A DNA stretch of 64,000 bases from contig CAWBPA010000024.1 in NCBI GenBank assembly GCA_963790545.1, positions 94,014-158,013 of the forward strand, given 5' to 3'. The notes below the pieces were generated by a model that did not search any database, was not told where the DNA came from, and saw nothing but the letters and a program-made list of their open reading frames with translations. Position 1 is the stretch's first letter. Each line of letters starts with the position of its first letter. Shown in pieces: positions 5,879 to 30,551 of the stretch. The DNA is from Vicinamibacterales bacterium (lineage in GTDB: Bacteria > Acidobacteriota > Vicinamibacteria > Vicinamibacterales > JAMQPK01). The position numbers and the translations under genes were made by a program.

Positions 5879-6748
5879 GTGATCGCCCGCGCTGAAGGAC
5901 CCGGGGCAAACATCCGGGTGTTCGGCAAGTTCGAGACCGAGGCGGTCCTGCGCTCGGTCATCGAGTCGGTCGCTGGGATTGAACCGATCCCGCTTGCGGC
6001 GATCTGTGTGGGAATCGCGGGTGCCGATCGCGAGGAAGATACGACTGTCGTTCGCCGGATCGTCCGCCGGATCGTCAAAACCGAGCGCATCCTCGTTGTC
6101 AACGACGCTCTCATTGCGCTCGAAGCCGGCGTCGGCGATGCCCCCGGCATCGTCATCATCGCGGGCACCGGATCGATCGCGTACGGACGGAATGAGCAGT
6201 ATCGGGCGGCGCGCGCGGGCGGTTGGGGCTACGTGCTCGGCGACGAAGGCAGCGGCTACTGGATGGGACGCCTGGCGCTGCGATCGGTCGTCCGCGCCTC
6301 GGACGGTCGCGGCGACAGGACGGCGCTGTCGCCGCTCATTCTCAATCACTTTGGCGTCACACGCGCGCGTGAGCTCGTGCGTGAGATTTACACCCGAGAA
6401 CTCGGCCCCTCGCAGATTGCACCGCTGGCGAAGTACGTCCAGGCGGCCGTCGAAGAAGGGGACCTTGTCGCCCGTCACATTCTGCAAGCCGGAGCGCGCG
6501 AGCTCGTGGCAGCTGCGGGCTCAGTCGCGTCACAGTTGTCGATGACGGAGGAGTCGTTCACGTTCGTGCTGGCCGGAGGCATTTTCCGGGCCGTGCCGTG
6601 GCTTGGTGACGATCTGCCCAAGCGGCTGCCGGTGGTCGCTCCCCGCAGCCGCACCGAGCTACTCCAGGAGGAACCAGCTCTGGGCGCGATCAGGCTCGCG
6701 ATGGCGGAAGCCAGAGGCAGTGCGCGCATCCCAACCTACGGCGACTGA
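5879..6748 (+). CDS. BadF/BadG/BcrA/BcrD-type ATPase (N-acetylglucosamine kinase-like)
   Basis: GxDGG-like sugar-kinase motifs (VGIAGADRE, IIAGTGSIAYG, GWGYVLGDEGSGYW). Homology continues upstream to about 5801 (HVVGLDVGSSKT) without an in-frame ATG, so the true start is probably a non-ATG codon near 5800. Confidence 0.7.
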   Translation: MIARAEGPGANIRVFGKFETEAVLRSVIESVAGIEPIPLAAICVGIAGADREEDTTVVRRIVRRIVKTERILVVNDALIALEAGVGDAPGIVIIAGTGSIAYGRNEQYRAARAGGWGYVLGDEGSGYWMGRLALRSVVRASDGRGDRTALSPLILNHFGVTRARELVREIYTRELGPSQIAPLAKYVQAAVEEGDLVARHILQAGARELVAAAGSVASQLSMTEESFTFVLAGGIFRAVPWLGDDLPKRLPVVAPRSRTELLQEEPALGAIRLAMAEARGSARIPTYGD

Positions 6749-6779
6749 CGCGCCAGCAAAGCCGCACGATTGTCACTAG

Positions 6780-6885
6780 CAAGATCCGGAGCGTAAGCGA
6801 CCCTTCGACGAAGCTCAGGGTCGTCCTGAGCGCAGTCGAAGGACGACGGCAGCGCGTGGGGTGGAGCCCCACGCGAACTAATAGA
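6780..6885. repeat. ~100-nt multi-hairpin intergenic element, copy 1 (copy 2 at 30098-30195)
   Basis: caagatccggagcgtaagcgacccttcgacgaagctcagggtcgtcctgagc...gtcgaaggacgacggcagcgcgtgggg..ccccacgcg shared almost base for base with the second locus; three nested inverted repeats. Confidence 0.8.
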
Positions 6886-6896
6886 AGGCCCGCGTC

Positions 6897-7841
6897 TCAC
6901 CCAGCGTTCAGCAGCTCTTTGAGGCGCGGCTCGAGATCTTCCCGGATGGCTTGACGCACCGAGTCGTCCGCTTTCTTGAGGCGGACAAGGGCCTTCGGGT
7001 AGGTGAGATCCGCTTTGTGCATGACAATCGCGGCTTTGGTGTTCCAGCGGGCGCTGCGTAGCAGCTTGTCCGAGTCGTCGTACTCCAGGCCTGTGACAAT
7101 CATGACAATCCGGCGGGCGCGATCGCGCAACTTTTCCGACCCCGTCTGAACATCGACCATCAGATTGCCGTAGGTCTTGCCGATCCGGACCATCGCGGCC
7201 GTCGTCAGCATGTTCAGCACCATCTTCGTGGCGGTACCTGCCTTGAGGCGCGTGGAACCGGCAATGACCTCGGCGCCTACCGCAGGGGCAATGGTGAGAT
7301 CGACAAACGTCTGCAGCTCGGTTCCCGGGTCGCACGTCACGAAAATGATCTTCGAACCGGCCTTGCGCGCAAACGTGAGAGCGCCGCGAACGAACTGCGT
7401 CATGCCACTGGCCGAAACGCCCACAACCACGTCTCTGCGCGTCGGACGCAGCCGCTTGATCGATCGGGCACCATCGTCGTACCGATCCTCGACGCCCTCT
7501 TTGGCATGCAGGACGGCGTTGCGTCCCCCCGCCATGATGGCCTGAACCATGGCCGCGGGCGTGCCGAACGTCGGCGGCATTTCAGCCGATTCGAGAATGC
7601 CCAGACGACCGCTGGTGCCGGCACCGACGAAAATGACCCGGCCGCCCTTGCGGAAACTCTGGACGATGATGTCCACACCCAGCGCAATACGCGATTTTTC
7701 ACGGTGGACGGCCGCCAGGACTTTGCGGTCATCCTGCATCATCAACTCGACGATGTCGCTCGAGGAGAGTTTGTCGAGCCCTAGCGTGGCGGGATTGATC
7801 GCCTCGGTGGGAAGTTCCTCCCACTTCGACCGATGAGGCAT
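6897..7841 (-). CDS. murQ: N-acetylmuramic acid 6-phosphate etherase
   Basis: SIS-domain signature with GAGTSGRLG and the MurQ-typical C-terminal region; start taken at MPHRSKWEEL. Confidence 0.85.
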   Translation of the reverse strand: MPHRSKWEELPTEAINPATLGLDKLSSSDIVELMMQDDRKVLAAVHREKSRIALGVDIIVQSFRKGGRVIFVGAGTSGRLGILESAEMPPTFGTPAAMVQAIMAGGRNAVLHAKEGVEDRYDDGARSIKRLRPTRRDVVVGVSASGMTQFVRGALTFARKAGSKIIFVTCDPGTELQTFVDLTIAPAVGAEVIAGSTRLKAGTATKMVLNMLTTAAMVRIGKTYGNLMVDVQTGSEKLRDRARRIVMIVTGLEYDDSDKLLRSARWNTKAAIVMHKADLTYPKALVRLKKADDSVRQAIREDLEPRLKELLNAG

Positions 7842-7920
7842 TTCTACAGAACCTTCGCTCGTCGCGAGGTGCGGCCTCGCAGCCGACAAGTAACCGCGCA
7901 TAGTAGCGCCGGGCTCCCGG

Positions 7921-8881
7921 GTGTGTCAACCTAGGGCAGTTTTCAAAACGACTTCCATGGTTGGTCCCGAAACATCAGCACGGCTCCTCGAGACCTATCT
8001 CGACCATCTCCGGATCGAGCGGCGCCTTGCCGATCACACGCTCGAAAGCTATCAACGGGACCTGCTCAAGCTCGCCCAGTTTGCCGCCGGTCGAAGCCAG
8101 ACGCTCGAGTTGCTGGATCGGCACGATCTGGATCGGTTCGTTCAGGAGCTGTCCGGGCAAGGTTTGTCCCCGCGCTCGGTAAGCCGGGCCGTCGCCGCGG
8201 TCAGAAGTTTCTACCGGTTCGTGACCCTCGAGCGCCGGCGCGATCAGAACCCGGCCGAAGATCTCCAGGCACCGCGCGCGTGGCCGGCCCTTCCGAAGTT
8301 CCTCTCGGCTGAAGAGGTCGACCGCCTCATTCAGATACCCGACACCACGACGGTGCGCGGGCTTCGCGATCGCGCACTCATCGAGCTTCTCTATGCAACC
8401 GGCCTCCGCGTTTCGGAGCTGGTGCAGCTGCGGGTGACCGACGTCAACCTCGAAGCCGCGTACCTGTCGTGTACGGGGAAAGGCGGAAAGCAGCGCGTCG
8501 TGCCGATTGGTGACGAAGCCAGCTCCTGGGTCAGCCGCTACCTTTCCACGGCGCGGCCGGCGCTCGTGGGCCGGAAAGCGCACGGGAAACCTGGCGGGGC
8601 GGAGCGCTTGTTCGTGAACGCGCGCGGGGGTCGCGCGCTGTCCCGCGTCGGGTTCTGGAAGATCCTCAAGCAGTGACGCCACAAAGGCGGGGTTGGGACG
8701 AGCGTTGAGTCCACATGTGCTGCGCCACTCGTTCGCCACGCACCTGCTCGACCGCGGCGCGGACCTGCGGGCCATCCAGCTCATGCTGGGTCATGCGGAT
8801 TTGTCCACCACGCAGATCTACACCCACGTACTCGAGGCGCGCCTTCGAGTCGTCTACGACAAATATCATCCGCGTCCGTAA
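7921..8881 (+). CDS. xerD: tyrosine recombinase XerD, frameshifted by one extra base at about 8674
   Basis: N-terminal SAM-like domain ([22 protein letters not shown]). The first frame ends ...FWKILKQ*. The next frame continues [15 protein letters not shown]...[15 protein letters not shown] with the catalytic R-H-R-Y residues. Removing one G in cagtGacgcc restores QYATKAGL. Confidence 0.8.
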
Positions 8882-12220: not shown

Positions 12221-12282
12221 CCGCTCCTATACAGTTTGGCAGGCGCACTACCATTCGGGCCGAATTGCTGGTAAAATCTCGG

Positions 12283-12352
12283 ACGCTGAGGAGCGTTGCA
12301 CTCCCCGACAGGGGGACCAGGCTCAGTGTAATAAACGGCGCTCGCACAGTTA
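12283..12352 (+). ncRNA. putative SAH (S-adenosylhomocysteine) riboswitch in the ahcY leader
   Basis: CGCUGAGGAGCGUUGCAC..CCCCGACAGGGG..CAGGCUCAGUG..AAACGGCGCUCGC matches the remembered SAH-riboswitch core (GAGGAGCGYUGC ... AGGCUCRG ... AACGGCGCUC). The P1 pairing CUGAG/CUCAG shows a compensatory change relative to the usual CCGAG/CUCGG. Located ~140 nt upstream of the ahcY start. Confidence 0.7.
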
Positions 12353-29615: not shown

Positions 29616-29639
29616 CTCAGCGTCGCGGAAGGATTGTCG

Positions 29640-30065
29640 ATGGGCAGCGTCAACAAAGTCATCCTGGTCGGAAACCTGGGCCGCGACGCGGAGCTTCGGT
29701 ACACGCCTGGTGGTGCGGCCGTCGCAACGCTCAATCTCGCCACGACCGAGGTCTGGAACGACAAAGGTGGTCAACGGCAGGAACGGACCGAGTGGCATCG
29801 CGTGGTGCTCTGGGGTAAGCCAGCCGAGTCGCTGGCCGACTACCTCACCAAGGGCAAGCAGATCTACGTCGAAGGTCGCCTCCAGACACGGCAATGGGAC
29901 GACAAGGACGGCAACAAGCGATACACCACCGAGGTGCGCAGCGACAAGATTGTGCTGCTTGGTGGAGGTGGCGGAAAAGCGGGTGCGGATCGCGGAGAAG
30001 CCATGCCACACCCGGATGCGATCAAGGAGCCGGCTGAGCTGACAGACGACGATATTCCATTCTAA
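29640..30065 (+). CDS. ssb: single-stranded DNA-binding protein
   Basis: OB-fold [37 protein letters not shown]...E.TEWHRVV.WGK and acidic tail DDDIPF. Confidence 0.9.
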
Positions 30066-30097
30066 GCATCACTTAAGCGGATAGTTTTCGATATCAA

Positions 30098-30195
30098 GAT
30101 CCGGAGCGTAAGCGACCCTTCGACGAAGCTCAGGGTCGTCCTGAGCCTGTCGAAGGACGACGGCAGCGCGTGGGGGTGGGGCCCCACGCGGATCA
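30098..30195. repeat. ~100-nt multi-hairpin intergenic element, copy 2
   Basis: Near-identical to 6780-6885, with small changes in loops; stems are conserved or slightly lengthened. Confidence 0.8.
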
Positions 30196-30197
30196 AG

Positions 30198-30551
30198 AAA
30201 TGACCACCAAAGTCGACAAACCTTGGGGCTACGAGCTCCACTGGGCGCTCACCGATCGGTATGTCGGCAAGGTGTTGCACGTGCGCGCCGGGCACGCATC
30301 TGAGTCTTCAGTATCACAACCGTAAGGACGAAACGATTCTCCTGTGGTCGGGCAAGATTCTGATGGAGGTTCAGGAGGGCGACAGTCTGGTCAAGCGCGA
30401 GATGCAGCCCGGCGATCGGCTGCATATCACGCCAGGCACGATCCACCGTATGACCGCCATCGAAGACAGCGACATCATGGAGGTCTCAACACCGGAACTC
30501 GACGATGTGGTGAGACTCGAAGATCGCTACGGACGGGTGGAGAAGATTTAG
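30198..30551 (+). CDS. cupin-domain protein, frameshift near 30290
   Basis: MTTKVDKPWGYELHWALTDRYVGKVLHVRAG... in one frame, continuing ...SLQYHNRKDETILLWSGKILMEVQEGD...PGDRLHITPGTIHRM in the next (the two conserved cupin motifs). Confidence 0.65.

Follow-up and report, generated by a model that had tools for sequence, protein, structure and literature searches.

The Neisseria REP2 and Borrelia IR-A/IR-B sequences are intergenic repeats of about 100-150 nt that lack terminal inverted repeats (TIRs) and carry two internal stem-loops (reviewed in PMC3184786; Morelle et al. 2003). Elements of the REP2 class stand immediately upstream of open reading frames (ORFs), the ATG of the repeat serving as the ORF start, and they are read as a duplicated 5'-untranslated region (5'-UTR) cassette (PMC3184786). 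In this study, we analyzed an intergenic element that occurs as two near-identical copies of ~98 nt (pairwise alignment), copy A at 6780-6877 (+) and copy B at 30095-30193 (+), in a 64-kb stretch of DNA from a Vicinamibacterales bacterium (contig CAWBPA010000024.1; the whole stretch is called the window below). Both copies are long-form members of a large two-hairpin intergenic repeat family of soil Acidobacteria of the order Vicinamibacterales, and among published systems the REP2/IR class is the closest analogue of this family in architecture and position.

An earlier note on this DNA had described the two loci as sharing about 100 nt almost base for base and as folding into three stems, and both observations held. 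The 30-nt core of the element is found exactly twice within the window and in 0 of 100 shuffles, and the three stems dominate the predicted folds, with minimum free energies of -51.6 and -50.5 kcal/mol and z-scores of -5.2 and -3.2 for copies A and B, respectively. The element is longer than the note stated: model matches (nhmmer and a covariance model, CM) span ~6756-6887 in A and ~30070-30202 in B. The differences between the copies do affect unpaired parts of hairpins, namely the middle hairpin's internal loop and the last hairpin's apex, but they are too few to prove anything alone. Both copies are intergenic and downstream of a gene end, as the note also stated. Copy A begins 31 nt past the stop of a BcrAD/BadFG-type ATPase gene at 5879-6748 (+), which was identified via its orthologue in L001 (L-numbers designate related contigs and loci fetched for comparison), and it ends 21 nt from the stop of the convergent gene for a MurQ-like SIS protein at 6897-7901 (-). 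Copy B begins 29 nt past the stop of ssb (29640-30065) and ends at the ATG of a cupin-type gene at 30200. The sequences flanking A and B have no relation to each other, which rules out a segmental duplication, and chance was rejected on the 0 shuffled matches. Neither model searches nor the P2 apex (see below) revealed a further copy, complete or partial, within the window.

Relatives were searched for more copies. A two-anchor pattern for the long form matched three contigs of two Vicinamibacterales metagenome-assembled genomes (MAGs), and a 21-mer from the 5' part of the element (AAGATCCGGAGCGTRAGCGAC) matched at least 120 metagenome contigs, nearly all of them from soil. The closest named SSB homologues belong to Acidobacteria or Vicinamibacterales MAGs as well, which makes that order the most likely source of the window. 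The case that would have undone the repeat reading, only two copies inside a larger duplication, is therefore not what was found. A CM built from 79 short copies (R1) gave 133 matches in 452 kb of fetched loci and recognizes both window copies (53.7 and 40.7 bits), placing an insert inside the first hairpin. The common form of the family is ~88 nt long and consists of a weakly conserved 5' box with the consensus (T)(G/C)ACT(A/G)AGCAGA, ~14 variable nt, CAAGATCC, hairpin P1 (CCG-GA-GC-GUAA/GUGA-GC-GA-CGG, in general terms with a GNRA loop position), a short linker, hairpin P2 (9 bp, loop GUGGGG, constant apex GGGGGUGGGGCCCC, apex motif GGGGGUGGGG) and an A-rich tail, GAnUAAAUAAUG.

The window copies represent a minority long variant, in which a hairpin of 40-41 nt (47 nt including the repeated CGAC) is nested in the P1 apex at the site GCGAC^GGCAG with a CGAC direct repeat on either side. 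Some 90% of the family do without this module, and precisely this stretch is absent from the final unit of the L006 array. The same hairpin, CCTTCGACAGGCTCAGGatgCCCTGAGCTTGCCGAAGG, is also found alone, outside any element, at ~L060:1770-1810 (+), and is therefore a separate module; it is palindromic and seems to be a repeat family of its own. At its free-standing site in L060 it has ATTGCA direct repeats at both sides and an ATG just downstream. Other inserts occupy the same P1 site in L043 and the P2 loop in L019, L025, L035, L117 and L118. Hence the three stems of the earlier note are real, but the middle one is an optional nested module outside the family core; likewise, its suspicion of a multi-copy intergenic hairpin family proved right, with the qualification that the core is a shorter unit of two hairpins, of which the copies in the window are composite versions.

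The family is abundant and apparently undescribed. No description of the element was found in the literature on repeats and RNA motifs of Acidobacteria and Vicinamibacter, and Rfam 15 gave no match at the gathering score or at E<=10 for copy A and at E<=1 for canonical short copies. A known RNA family was rejected, as permissive Rfam searches yielded only chance miRNA-like matches elsewhere; scans of IMG/VR for a viral or prophage origin matched only by chance, in coding DNA. The arrays described below are not CRISPR arrays, because they repeat the whole 81-123-nt unit, 'spacer' included.

Conservation of the structure was examined in the alignment of the 79 short copies. The pairing of P2 was not imposed by the search pattern, and it covaries, with exchanges between G-C and A-U in 17/79 copies and between U-A and C-G in 24/79. 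Cells with a double change numbered 41, versus 12.9 after shuffling, and the signal collapsed when the partners were slid against each other; in a mutual-information scan of all column pairs, the P2 pairs ranked top. A third signal came from adjacent G-C/C-G pairs that are jointly swapped to tandem G.A/A.G in 16 of the copies. In diverged copies that consist of P2 only and were found by the model, the constant apex is kept and the outer stems are compensated (GTCGT/ACGAC, GCGCCG/CGGCGC, GCGGCG/CGCCGC). These results show that P2 is a hairpin maintained by compensation, so that the claim of a structure kept by pairing is borne out, by genuine compensatory change, for this one hairpin. P1 lies within the search pattern and covariation therefore cannot judge it; in four copies outside the pattern its loop reads GGAA and GCAA, which are GNRA loops, and GUAC and GUCA, which are not. 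The GNRA-type loops (GUAA, GUGA, GGAA, GCAA) and the tandem G.A motifs are meaningful on the sense strand only. Two further helices were considered and set aside. For a third, upstream hairpin (P0), local pairing is possible in many of the 5' variable regions, but no consistent or covarying stem emerged in the alignment, and a closing helix GAUCC/GGAUC around P1 and P2, predicted in copy B and L064, was not adopted because most tails read GGAC or GAAC.

The position of the element relative to genes was determined by looking for an ORF on the same strand, of at least 80 codons or running off the contig, with a start from -8 to +50 nt of the element end. Such a start was present at the 3' end of 87 of the 104 elements with an intact 3' end (84%), and in 41 of these 87 it is the ATG of the tail. 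An ATG lies 9 or 10 nt past P2 in 48 of 95 distinct elements with an exact P2 apex. Where it could be tested, a long ORF continues in frame from the tail ATG in 38 of 51 cases (75%), whereas the +1 frame is open in 2/51; the +2 frame is open in 23/51, which we read as usual for that frame beside a real high-GC gene. Elements whose tail ATG is not used have an AGGAG-type site and another ATG after the tail, or, in one case, a tRNA gene. Analysis of the upstream genes by open frames was judged unreliable, because the 5' box contains TAA/TGA and GC-rich DNA holds many spurious frames. The genes downstream are diverse (76 Pfam families in 51 proteins) and those identified by Pfam include S10, L4, L16, ATP synthase delta, IlvB, IlvC, DapA, HisD, NuoD, CarB, MetK, Alr and acyl-CoA dehydrogenases. 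Further downstream products, recognized by their N-terminal sequences, we take to be L3, AtpA and HisH, and by comparison with known N-termini, AtpA, L16 and L4 begin at the tail ATG. On one 2.6-kb contig (L033), elements precede S10, L3 and L4.

In all these respects, i.e., the lack of TIRs, the two stem-loops, the place directly upstream of ORFs and the use of the repeat's own ATG, the family resembles REP2. It differs in that REP2 has a recognizable promoter and a ribosome-binding site, whereas the present family has neither a sigma-70-like promoter nor a Shine-Dalgarno (SD) sequence; its copies are often or mostly intercistronic in operons, housekeeping ones included, are arrayed head-to-tail and accept nested hairpins; and it belongs to another phylum, the two having been compared by description only. 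The intercistronic arrangement is shared with the mycobacterial interspersed repetitive units (MIRUs), which are direct tandem repeats of 40-100 nt, oriented with transcription, with ends touching stop and start codons (Supply et al. 1997, in PMC3184786). MIRUs vary in copy number among strains, and their small ORFs run into the neighbors' stop and start codons, implying translational coupling (PMC3184786). The present family is likewise intercistronic, in direct tandem and oriented with the operon (S10 operon, atpH-atpA, pairs of acyl-CoA dehydrogenase genes; arrays of 2-7 units), but it keeps no reading frame, its linker lengths vary, and the conserved features are the hairpins; the TAAs of the consensus are 37 nt apart and therefore not in frame, so the small ORF of MIRUs has no counterpart. 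The BOX elements of Streptococcus pneumoniae have a modular boxA-boxB(n)-boxC structure and are transcribed with neighboring genes. They share with the family the modular intergenic make-up, variable internal modules and a stable predicted RNA structure; they differ from it by MITE-like ends (those of miniature transposable elements with inverted repeats) and the lack of a fixed relation to start codons, and they have a proposed insertion sequence partner.

Because REP2 provides a precedent for a repeat with expression signals (PMC3184786), we considered whether the element could be a DNA-level regulatory site, i.e., a promoter specific to the lineage or an operator through which a global regulator co-regulates many genes, as proposed for Neisseria REP2. 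The strict conservation of ~50 nt of sequence, beyond what pairing demands, the palindromes TCCGGA and GTGGGGCCCCAC contained in it and the position upstream of many genes are in line with such a site. However, a convincing sigma-70-like -35/-10 pair was not found (1 weak pair in 116 elements versus 3.6 expected from shuffles; the promoter consensus of the phylum is not established), and many copies lie inside tight operons such as the S10 operon and atpH-atpA, in which one would not expect an internal promoter or operator. Moreover, changes in the 3' arm of P2 (CCCCAC to CCCCAT or CCCCGC) are matched by the distal 5' arm while the adjacent GTGGGG is unchanged, which fits a hairpin and not a double-stranded palindrome. 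We therefore regard a DNA site as improbable.

The earlier note had also suggested a small structured noncoding RNA. Small-RNA genes in their own right, or a cis-regulator tied to particular genes (a riboswitch or a ribosomal-protein leader, for instance), would agree with the stable fold (z-scores down to -5) and with the P2 covariation, but no own promoter or terminator was found: promoter-like and terminator-like sites are absent at copies A and B, and an intrinsic terminator (GC hairpin plus U-tract) is not present at either copy, the tail being A-rich. The element fills the stop-to-start gap of operons, is co-oriented with the next gene and abuts its start codon, is followed by 76 different Pfam families, and has no Rfam family even at E=10. 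A free-standing small-RNA gene is thus unlikely, and this class of explanation as a whole is very improbable. Both the operator or promoter and the free-standing small RNA are less likely than a selfish repeat, to which we turn with the evolutionary data.

The element is retained at the same junction in diverged genomes. Such orthologous sites are atpH-atpA (L093, L095, L126), the junction of two adjacent acyl-CoA dehydrogenase genes (L049, L059, L066, L128), that of a microcompartment shell gene and an EutN-like gene (L013, L054, L076, L080, L088), and that of a gene read by eye as dnaB with the following alr (L100, L107). At these junctions the flanking coding sequences are 61-84% identical and the 5' variable part 43-69%, versus 88-98% for the 51-nt core, of which 21 nt are fixed by the search, with loci of decayed elements lying outside the sample. 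The three atpH-atpA copies share an extra linker G before P2 (GGCAGGCGCATGG), read off the listed sequences. On the other hand, closely related strains are polymorphic. An identical 334-aa MurQ-like protein is encoded on four contigs, and the convergent spacer is different in each: the long element in the window (6749-6896), a rearranged element with a short inverted segment (L001:11006-11128), a plain GC hairpin (L002:2232-2276) and unrelated sequence (L003:1820-1875), the segment 6749..6888 being replaced in the latter two by 35-55 nt of unrelated sequence. This spacer is a hypervariable spot. In the closest ssb relative, L132, a P2-only element lies in the 78-nt ybgF-ssb spacer (L132:2423-2500) and ends at an AAGGA ribosome-binding site, whereas the window has a 24-nt spacer (29616-29639) with the same AAGGA-N6-ATG and no element, which is a clean filled/empty pair for a minimal unit of P2 plus tail. 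Upstream of the cupin gene, L132 bears another mosaic of hairpins that includes a P2 remnant. Arrays in which 2-7 units follow one another head-to-tail are common (L006, L017, L018, L033, L034, L053, L102, L105).

In a separate observation, L013:5100-5400 and L122:450-750 are 99-100% identical over the upstream gene and the element, and the genes downstream are unrelated (EutN-like in L013; in L122 an N-terminus that resembles an ATP-binding cassette (ABC) transporter ATPase). Either the repeat was a site of recombination here, or it gave rise to a chimera in the metagenome assembly.

Polymorphism of this kind could be the work of a selfish mosaic repeat. Repetitive extragenic palindromic (REP) sequences are defined by an unpaired GTAG/CGTC flanking a 20-40-nt palindrome, and their head-to-tail dimers are rare (PMC3733652). 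The family shares with REPs and bacterial interspersed mosaic elements (BIMEs) the G+C-rich hairpins in intergenic and intercistronic regions, the mosaic combination of parts and the compensatory stem changes, and stabilization of the upstream mRNA is a known feature of REP/BIME sequences (PMC3733652). A repeat of REP/BIME type could have hairpins recognized as single-stranded DNA by an enzyme acting in trans (HUH-like, like the REP-associated tyrosine transposases (RAYTs), or other); the unit would be copied into AT-rich spots by stop and start codons, and its position and orientation would reflect target choice and purifying selection, not function. Although we hold it to be rather unlikely, this is the main rival explanation. 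It accounts equally well for the presence, absence and rearrangement among the identical-MurQ contigs, the filled and empty ybgF-ssb spacers, the head-to-tail arrays with truncated units, the nested second module that also exists alone, the P2-loop inserts and the BIME-like mosaic make-up, and the compensatory changes would equally preserve a DNA hairpin.

Several observations argue against it. The earlier note had named both REP-like and MITE-like repeats, and neither label is supported. The family consensus lacks GTAG, and its only CGTC (on the reverse strand of GACG) belongs to P1 instead of standing at a palindrome's foot; all its arrays are head-to-tail, while REP dimers are mainly head-to-head or tail-to-tail; and its unit always combines two unlike hairpins with a tail, at a fixed spacing to the start codon. 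We know of no link between the family and RAYTs. The sequence at the 5' end (ACTAAGCAGA...) is not the reverse complement of that at the 3' end (...GACTAAATAATG), so that TIRs are absent, and target-site duplications, which were looked for in the three comparisons of filled with empty or variant sites (the window with L002 and with L003 at the MurQ spacer, and L132 with the window at ybgF-ssb), were not found, replacement or insertion being seen instead. ACTAA-like words do occur in the 5' box and the tail, but variants in one are not mirrored in the other, and ACTAA was rejected as a target-site duplication. No transposase was seen beside any copy (no systematic search for one was made). Further points against a selfish repeat are the frame of the tail ATG, which agrees with that of the following gene in 75% instead of 33% of cases, the retention of the element at the same junctions between flanking coding sequences diverged as above, with an extra linker G shared by the atpH-atpA orthologues, and the tandem G.A and GNRA motifs, which are sensible on the sense strand only.

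We tentatively favor, at somewhat less than even odds, the reading of the element as a transcribed cis-acting RNA module of 5'-UTRs and intercistronic regions. This proposal is drawn from the sequence features taken together: the motifs of the sense strand, the compensated hairpin, the co-orientation with the next gene, the A-rich spacer of 9-10 nt to an in-frame start, the filled intercistronic gaps in housekeeping operons, and the lack of an own promoter or terminator. The element would be transcribed within the mRNA and act in cis. Two very stable hairpins would come first, P1 with its GNRA-type tetraloop and tandem G.A pairs and the G/C-rich P2 with its constant apex, followed by a 9-10-nt unpaired A-rich tail whose end lies within, or immediately ahead of, the following gene's start codon. 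The hairpins could lock up GC-rich upstream RNA and so insulate the start region, and they may serve as exonuclease barriers or mark or flank processing sites, with possible effects on translation and mRNA stability. The tail would present the start region without an SD sequence: the tail GAnTAAATAATG contains no GGAG or AGGA, and any SD comes after it. An SD motif is present in 23 of 61 called genes of related contigs, therefore SD-less starts are ordinary in this lineage. Overall, the element would amount to a portable 5'-UTR or intercistronic cassette. Copy B is in the canonical position, ahead of the cupin gene, and copy A, which occupies the 3' spacer of two convergent genes, is probably of recent origin and dispensable. 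The family would change by head-to-tail duplication, by replacement of whole spacers and by nesting of other hairpin modules, as in both window copies.

A bolder version, in which P2 at 9-10 nt upstream of the AUG and the A-rich spacer form a portable, SD-independent ribosome-docking signal with the copied start codon included, seems to us distinctly unlikely. There, a preformed helix would stand in for the SD-anti-SD helix, or base pairs would form between the G-rich apex (GGGGGUG) and the end of 16S rRNA that reads CACCUCC; the signal would have been copied before dozens to hundreds of housekeeping genes as a self-propagating initiation cassette that also punctuates operon mRNAs.

A number of points weigh against the cis-acting RNA module. 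Copy A and some other copies are not ahead of a start codon, and the co-orientation with genes could be a by-product of replication-strand bias. The way copies were ascertained makes the 21-nt core invariant, so that covariation lends P1 no support, and two of the four P1 loop variants outside the search pattern are not GNRA. Orthologous sites were sampled only with an intact element, and gene conversion among copies could be the source of the high core identity. The fast turnover among identical-MurQ strains and the arrays of up to 7 units (L102) look like repeat dynamics more than like a fixed function, and two 20-kb stretches of related genomes (L133, L134) hold no copy.

Table 1. Parts of copies A and B and their positions in the window
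Feature	Position	Strand	Remark
Copy A, whole variable intergenic segment	6749..6888	+	Between convergent 5879-6748 (+) and 6897-7901 (-)
Copy A, 5' box and variable region cagcAAAGCcGcAcgattgtcactag	6756..6779	+	nhmmer/CM matches start here; weakly conserved
Copy A, conserved core CAAGATCCGGAGCGTAAGCGAC	6780..6801	+	P1 5' strand CCG-GA-GC, GUAA tetraloop, GCGAC
Copy A, nested optional hairpin, CCTTCGAC gaa GCTCAGG gtcgt CCTGAGC gca GTCGAAGG	6802..6842	+	Predicted fold
Copy A, ACGACGGCA, 3' strand of the P1 base (GA-CGG) and linker to P2	6843..6851	+	CM alignment
Copy A, hairpin P2, CGCGTGGGG(t) gga (g)CCCCACGCG	6853..6875	+	Predicted fold; family covariation
Copy A, A-rich tail AACTAATAGAAG	6876..6887	+	Not followed by a start codon (next gene convergent)
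Copy B, 5' box and variable region cACTtAAGCGGAtagttttcgatat	30070..30094	+	5 nt past the ssb stop codon 30063-30065
Copy B, conserved core CAAGATCCGGAGCGTAAGCGAC	30095..30116	+	P1 5' strand and GUAA loop
Copy B, nested optional hairpin module	30117..30156	+	Fold, CM alignment
Copy B, ACGACGGCA	30157..30165	+	P1 3' strand and linker
Copy B, hairpin P2, CGCGTGGGG gtgggg CCCCACGCG; apex GGGGGTGGGGCCCC is the canonical family apex	30167..30190	+	
Copy B, tail GATCAAGAA, then ATG	30191..30202	+	Start of the cupin-type ORF, 9 nt past P2

The cupin-type gene that follows copy B has an orthologue in L132 (L132:3044-3391) that matches Pfam PF01050 and encodes an intact cupin protein of 115 aa. In the window, this cupin/mannose-6-phosphate-isomerase-like gene, 30200-30551 (+), is interrupted near 30290, where a 1-nt frameshift divides it into a first frame ending at ~30325 and a remainder, the ORF 30261-30551, due either to a sequencing error or to the gene being a pseudogene. 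Elsewhere in the window, an S-adenosylhomocysteine (SAH) riboswitch was found at 12282-12350 (+) (Rfam RF01057, 53.7 bits, E=4e-7), and the corresponding neighborhood in L001, a close relative, encodes AdoHcyase and S-adenosylmethionine synthetase. In the related contigs, short tandem repeats of 7-9 nt (units gggattt x4, gggcaggta-like, ggctcta-like and aatcccg x3) adjoin elements or directly precede start codons (L112 ~8440-8470, L036 ~1650-1720, L033 ~380-450, L102 ~380-440, L001 ~1478-1502, and upstream of the element in L020 and L070); this lineage thus has simple repeats between its genes as another class of repeat.

For metagenomics, the repeat breaks or chimerizes assemblies and creates spurious ORFs, and the covariance model could be used to mask or annotate its copies. 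Vicinamibacterales are among the most abundant soil bacteria, and gene expression in them is almost uncharted. A conserved 50-nt module that may act as RNA keeps a fixed distance to the start codons of many genes, among them those for ribosomal proteins, ATP synthase and amino-acid biosynthesis, and this relation to start codons is unusual and testable. If the cis-acting RNA module is real, it would offer a handle on SD-independent initiation and on the processing of operon mRNAs in this phylum, and, with Neisseria REP2 as the first, it would be a second independent case of a repeat by which a complete 5' UTR is spread together with its start codon.

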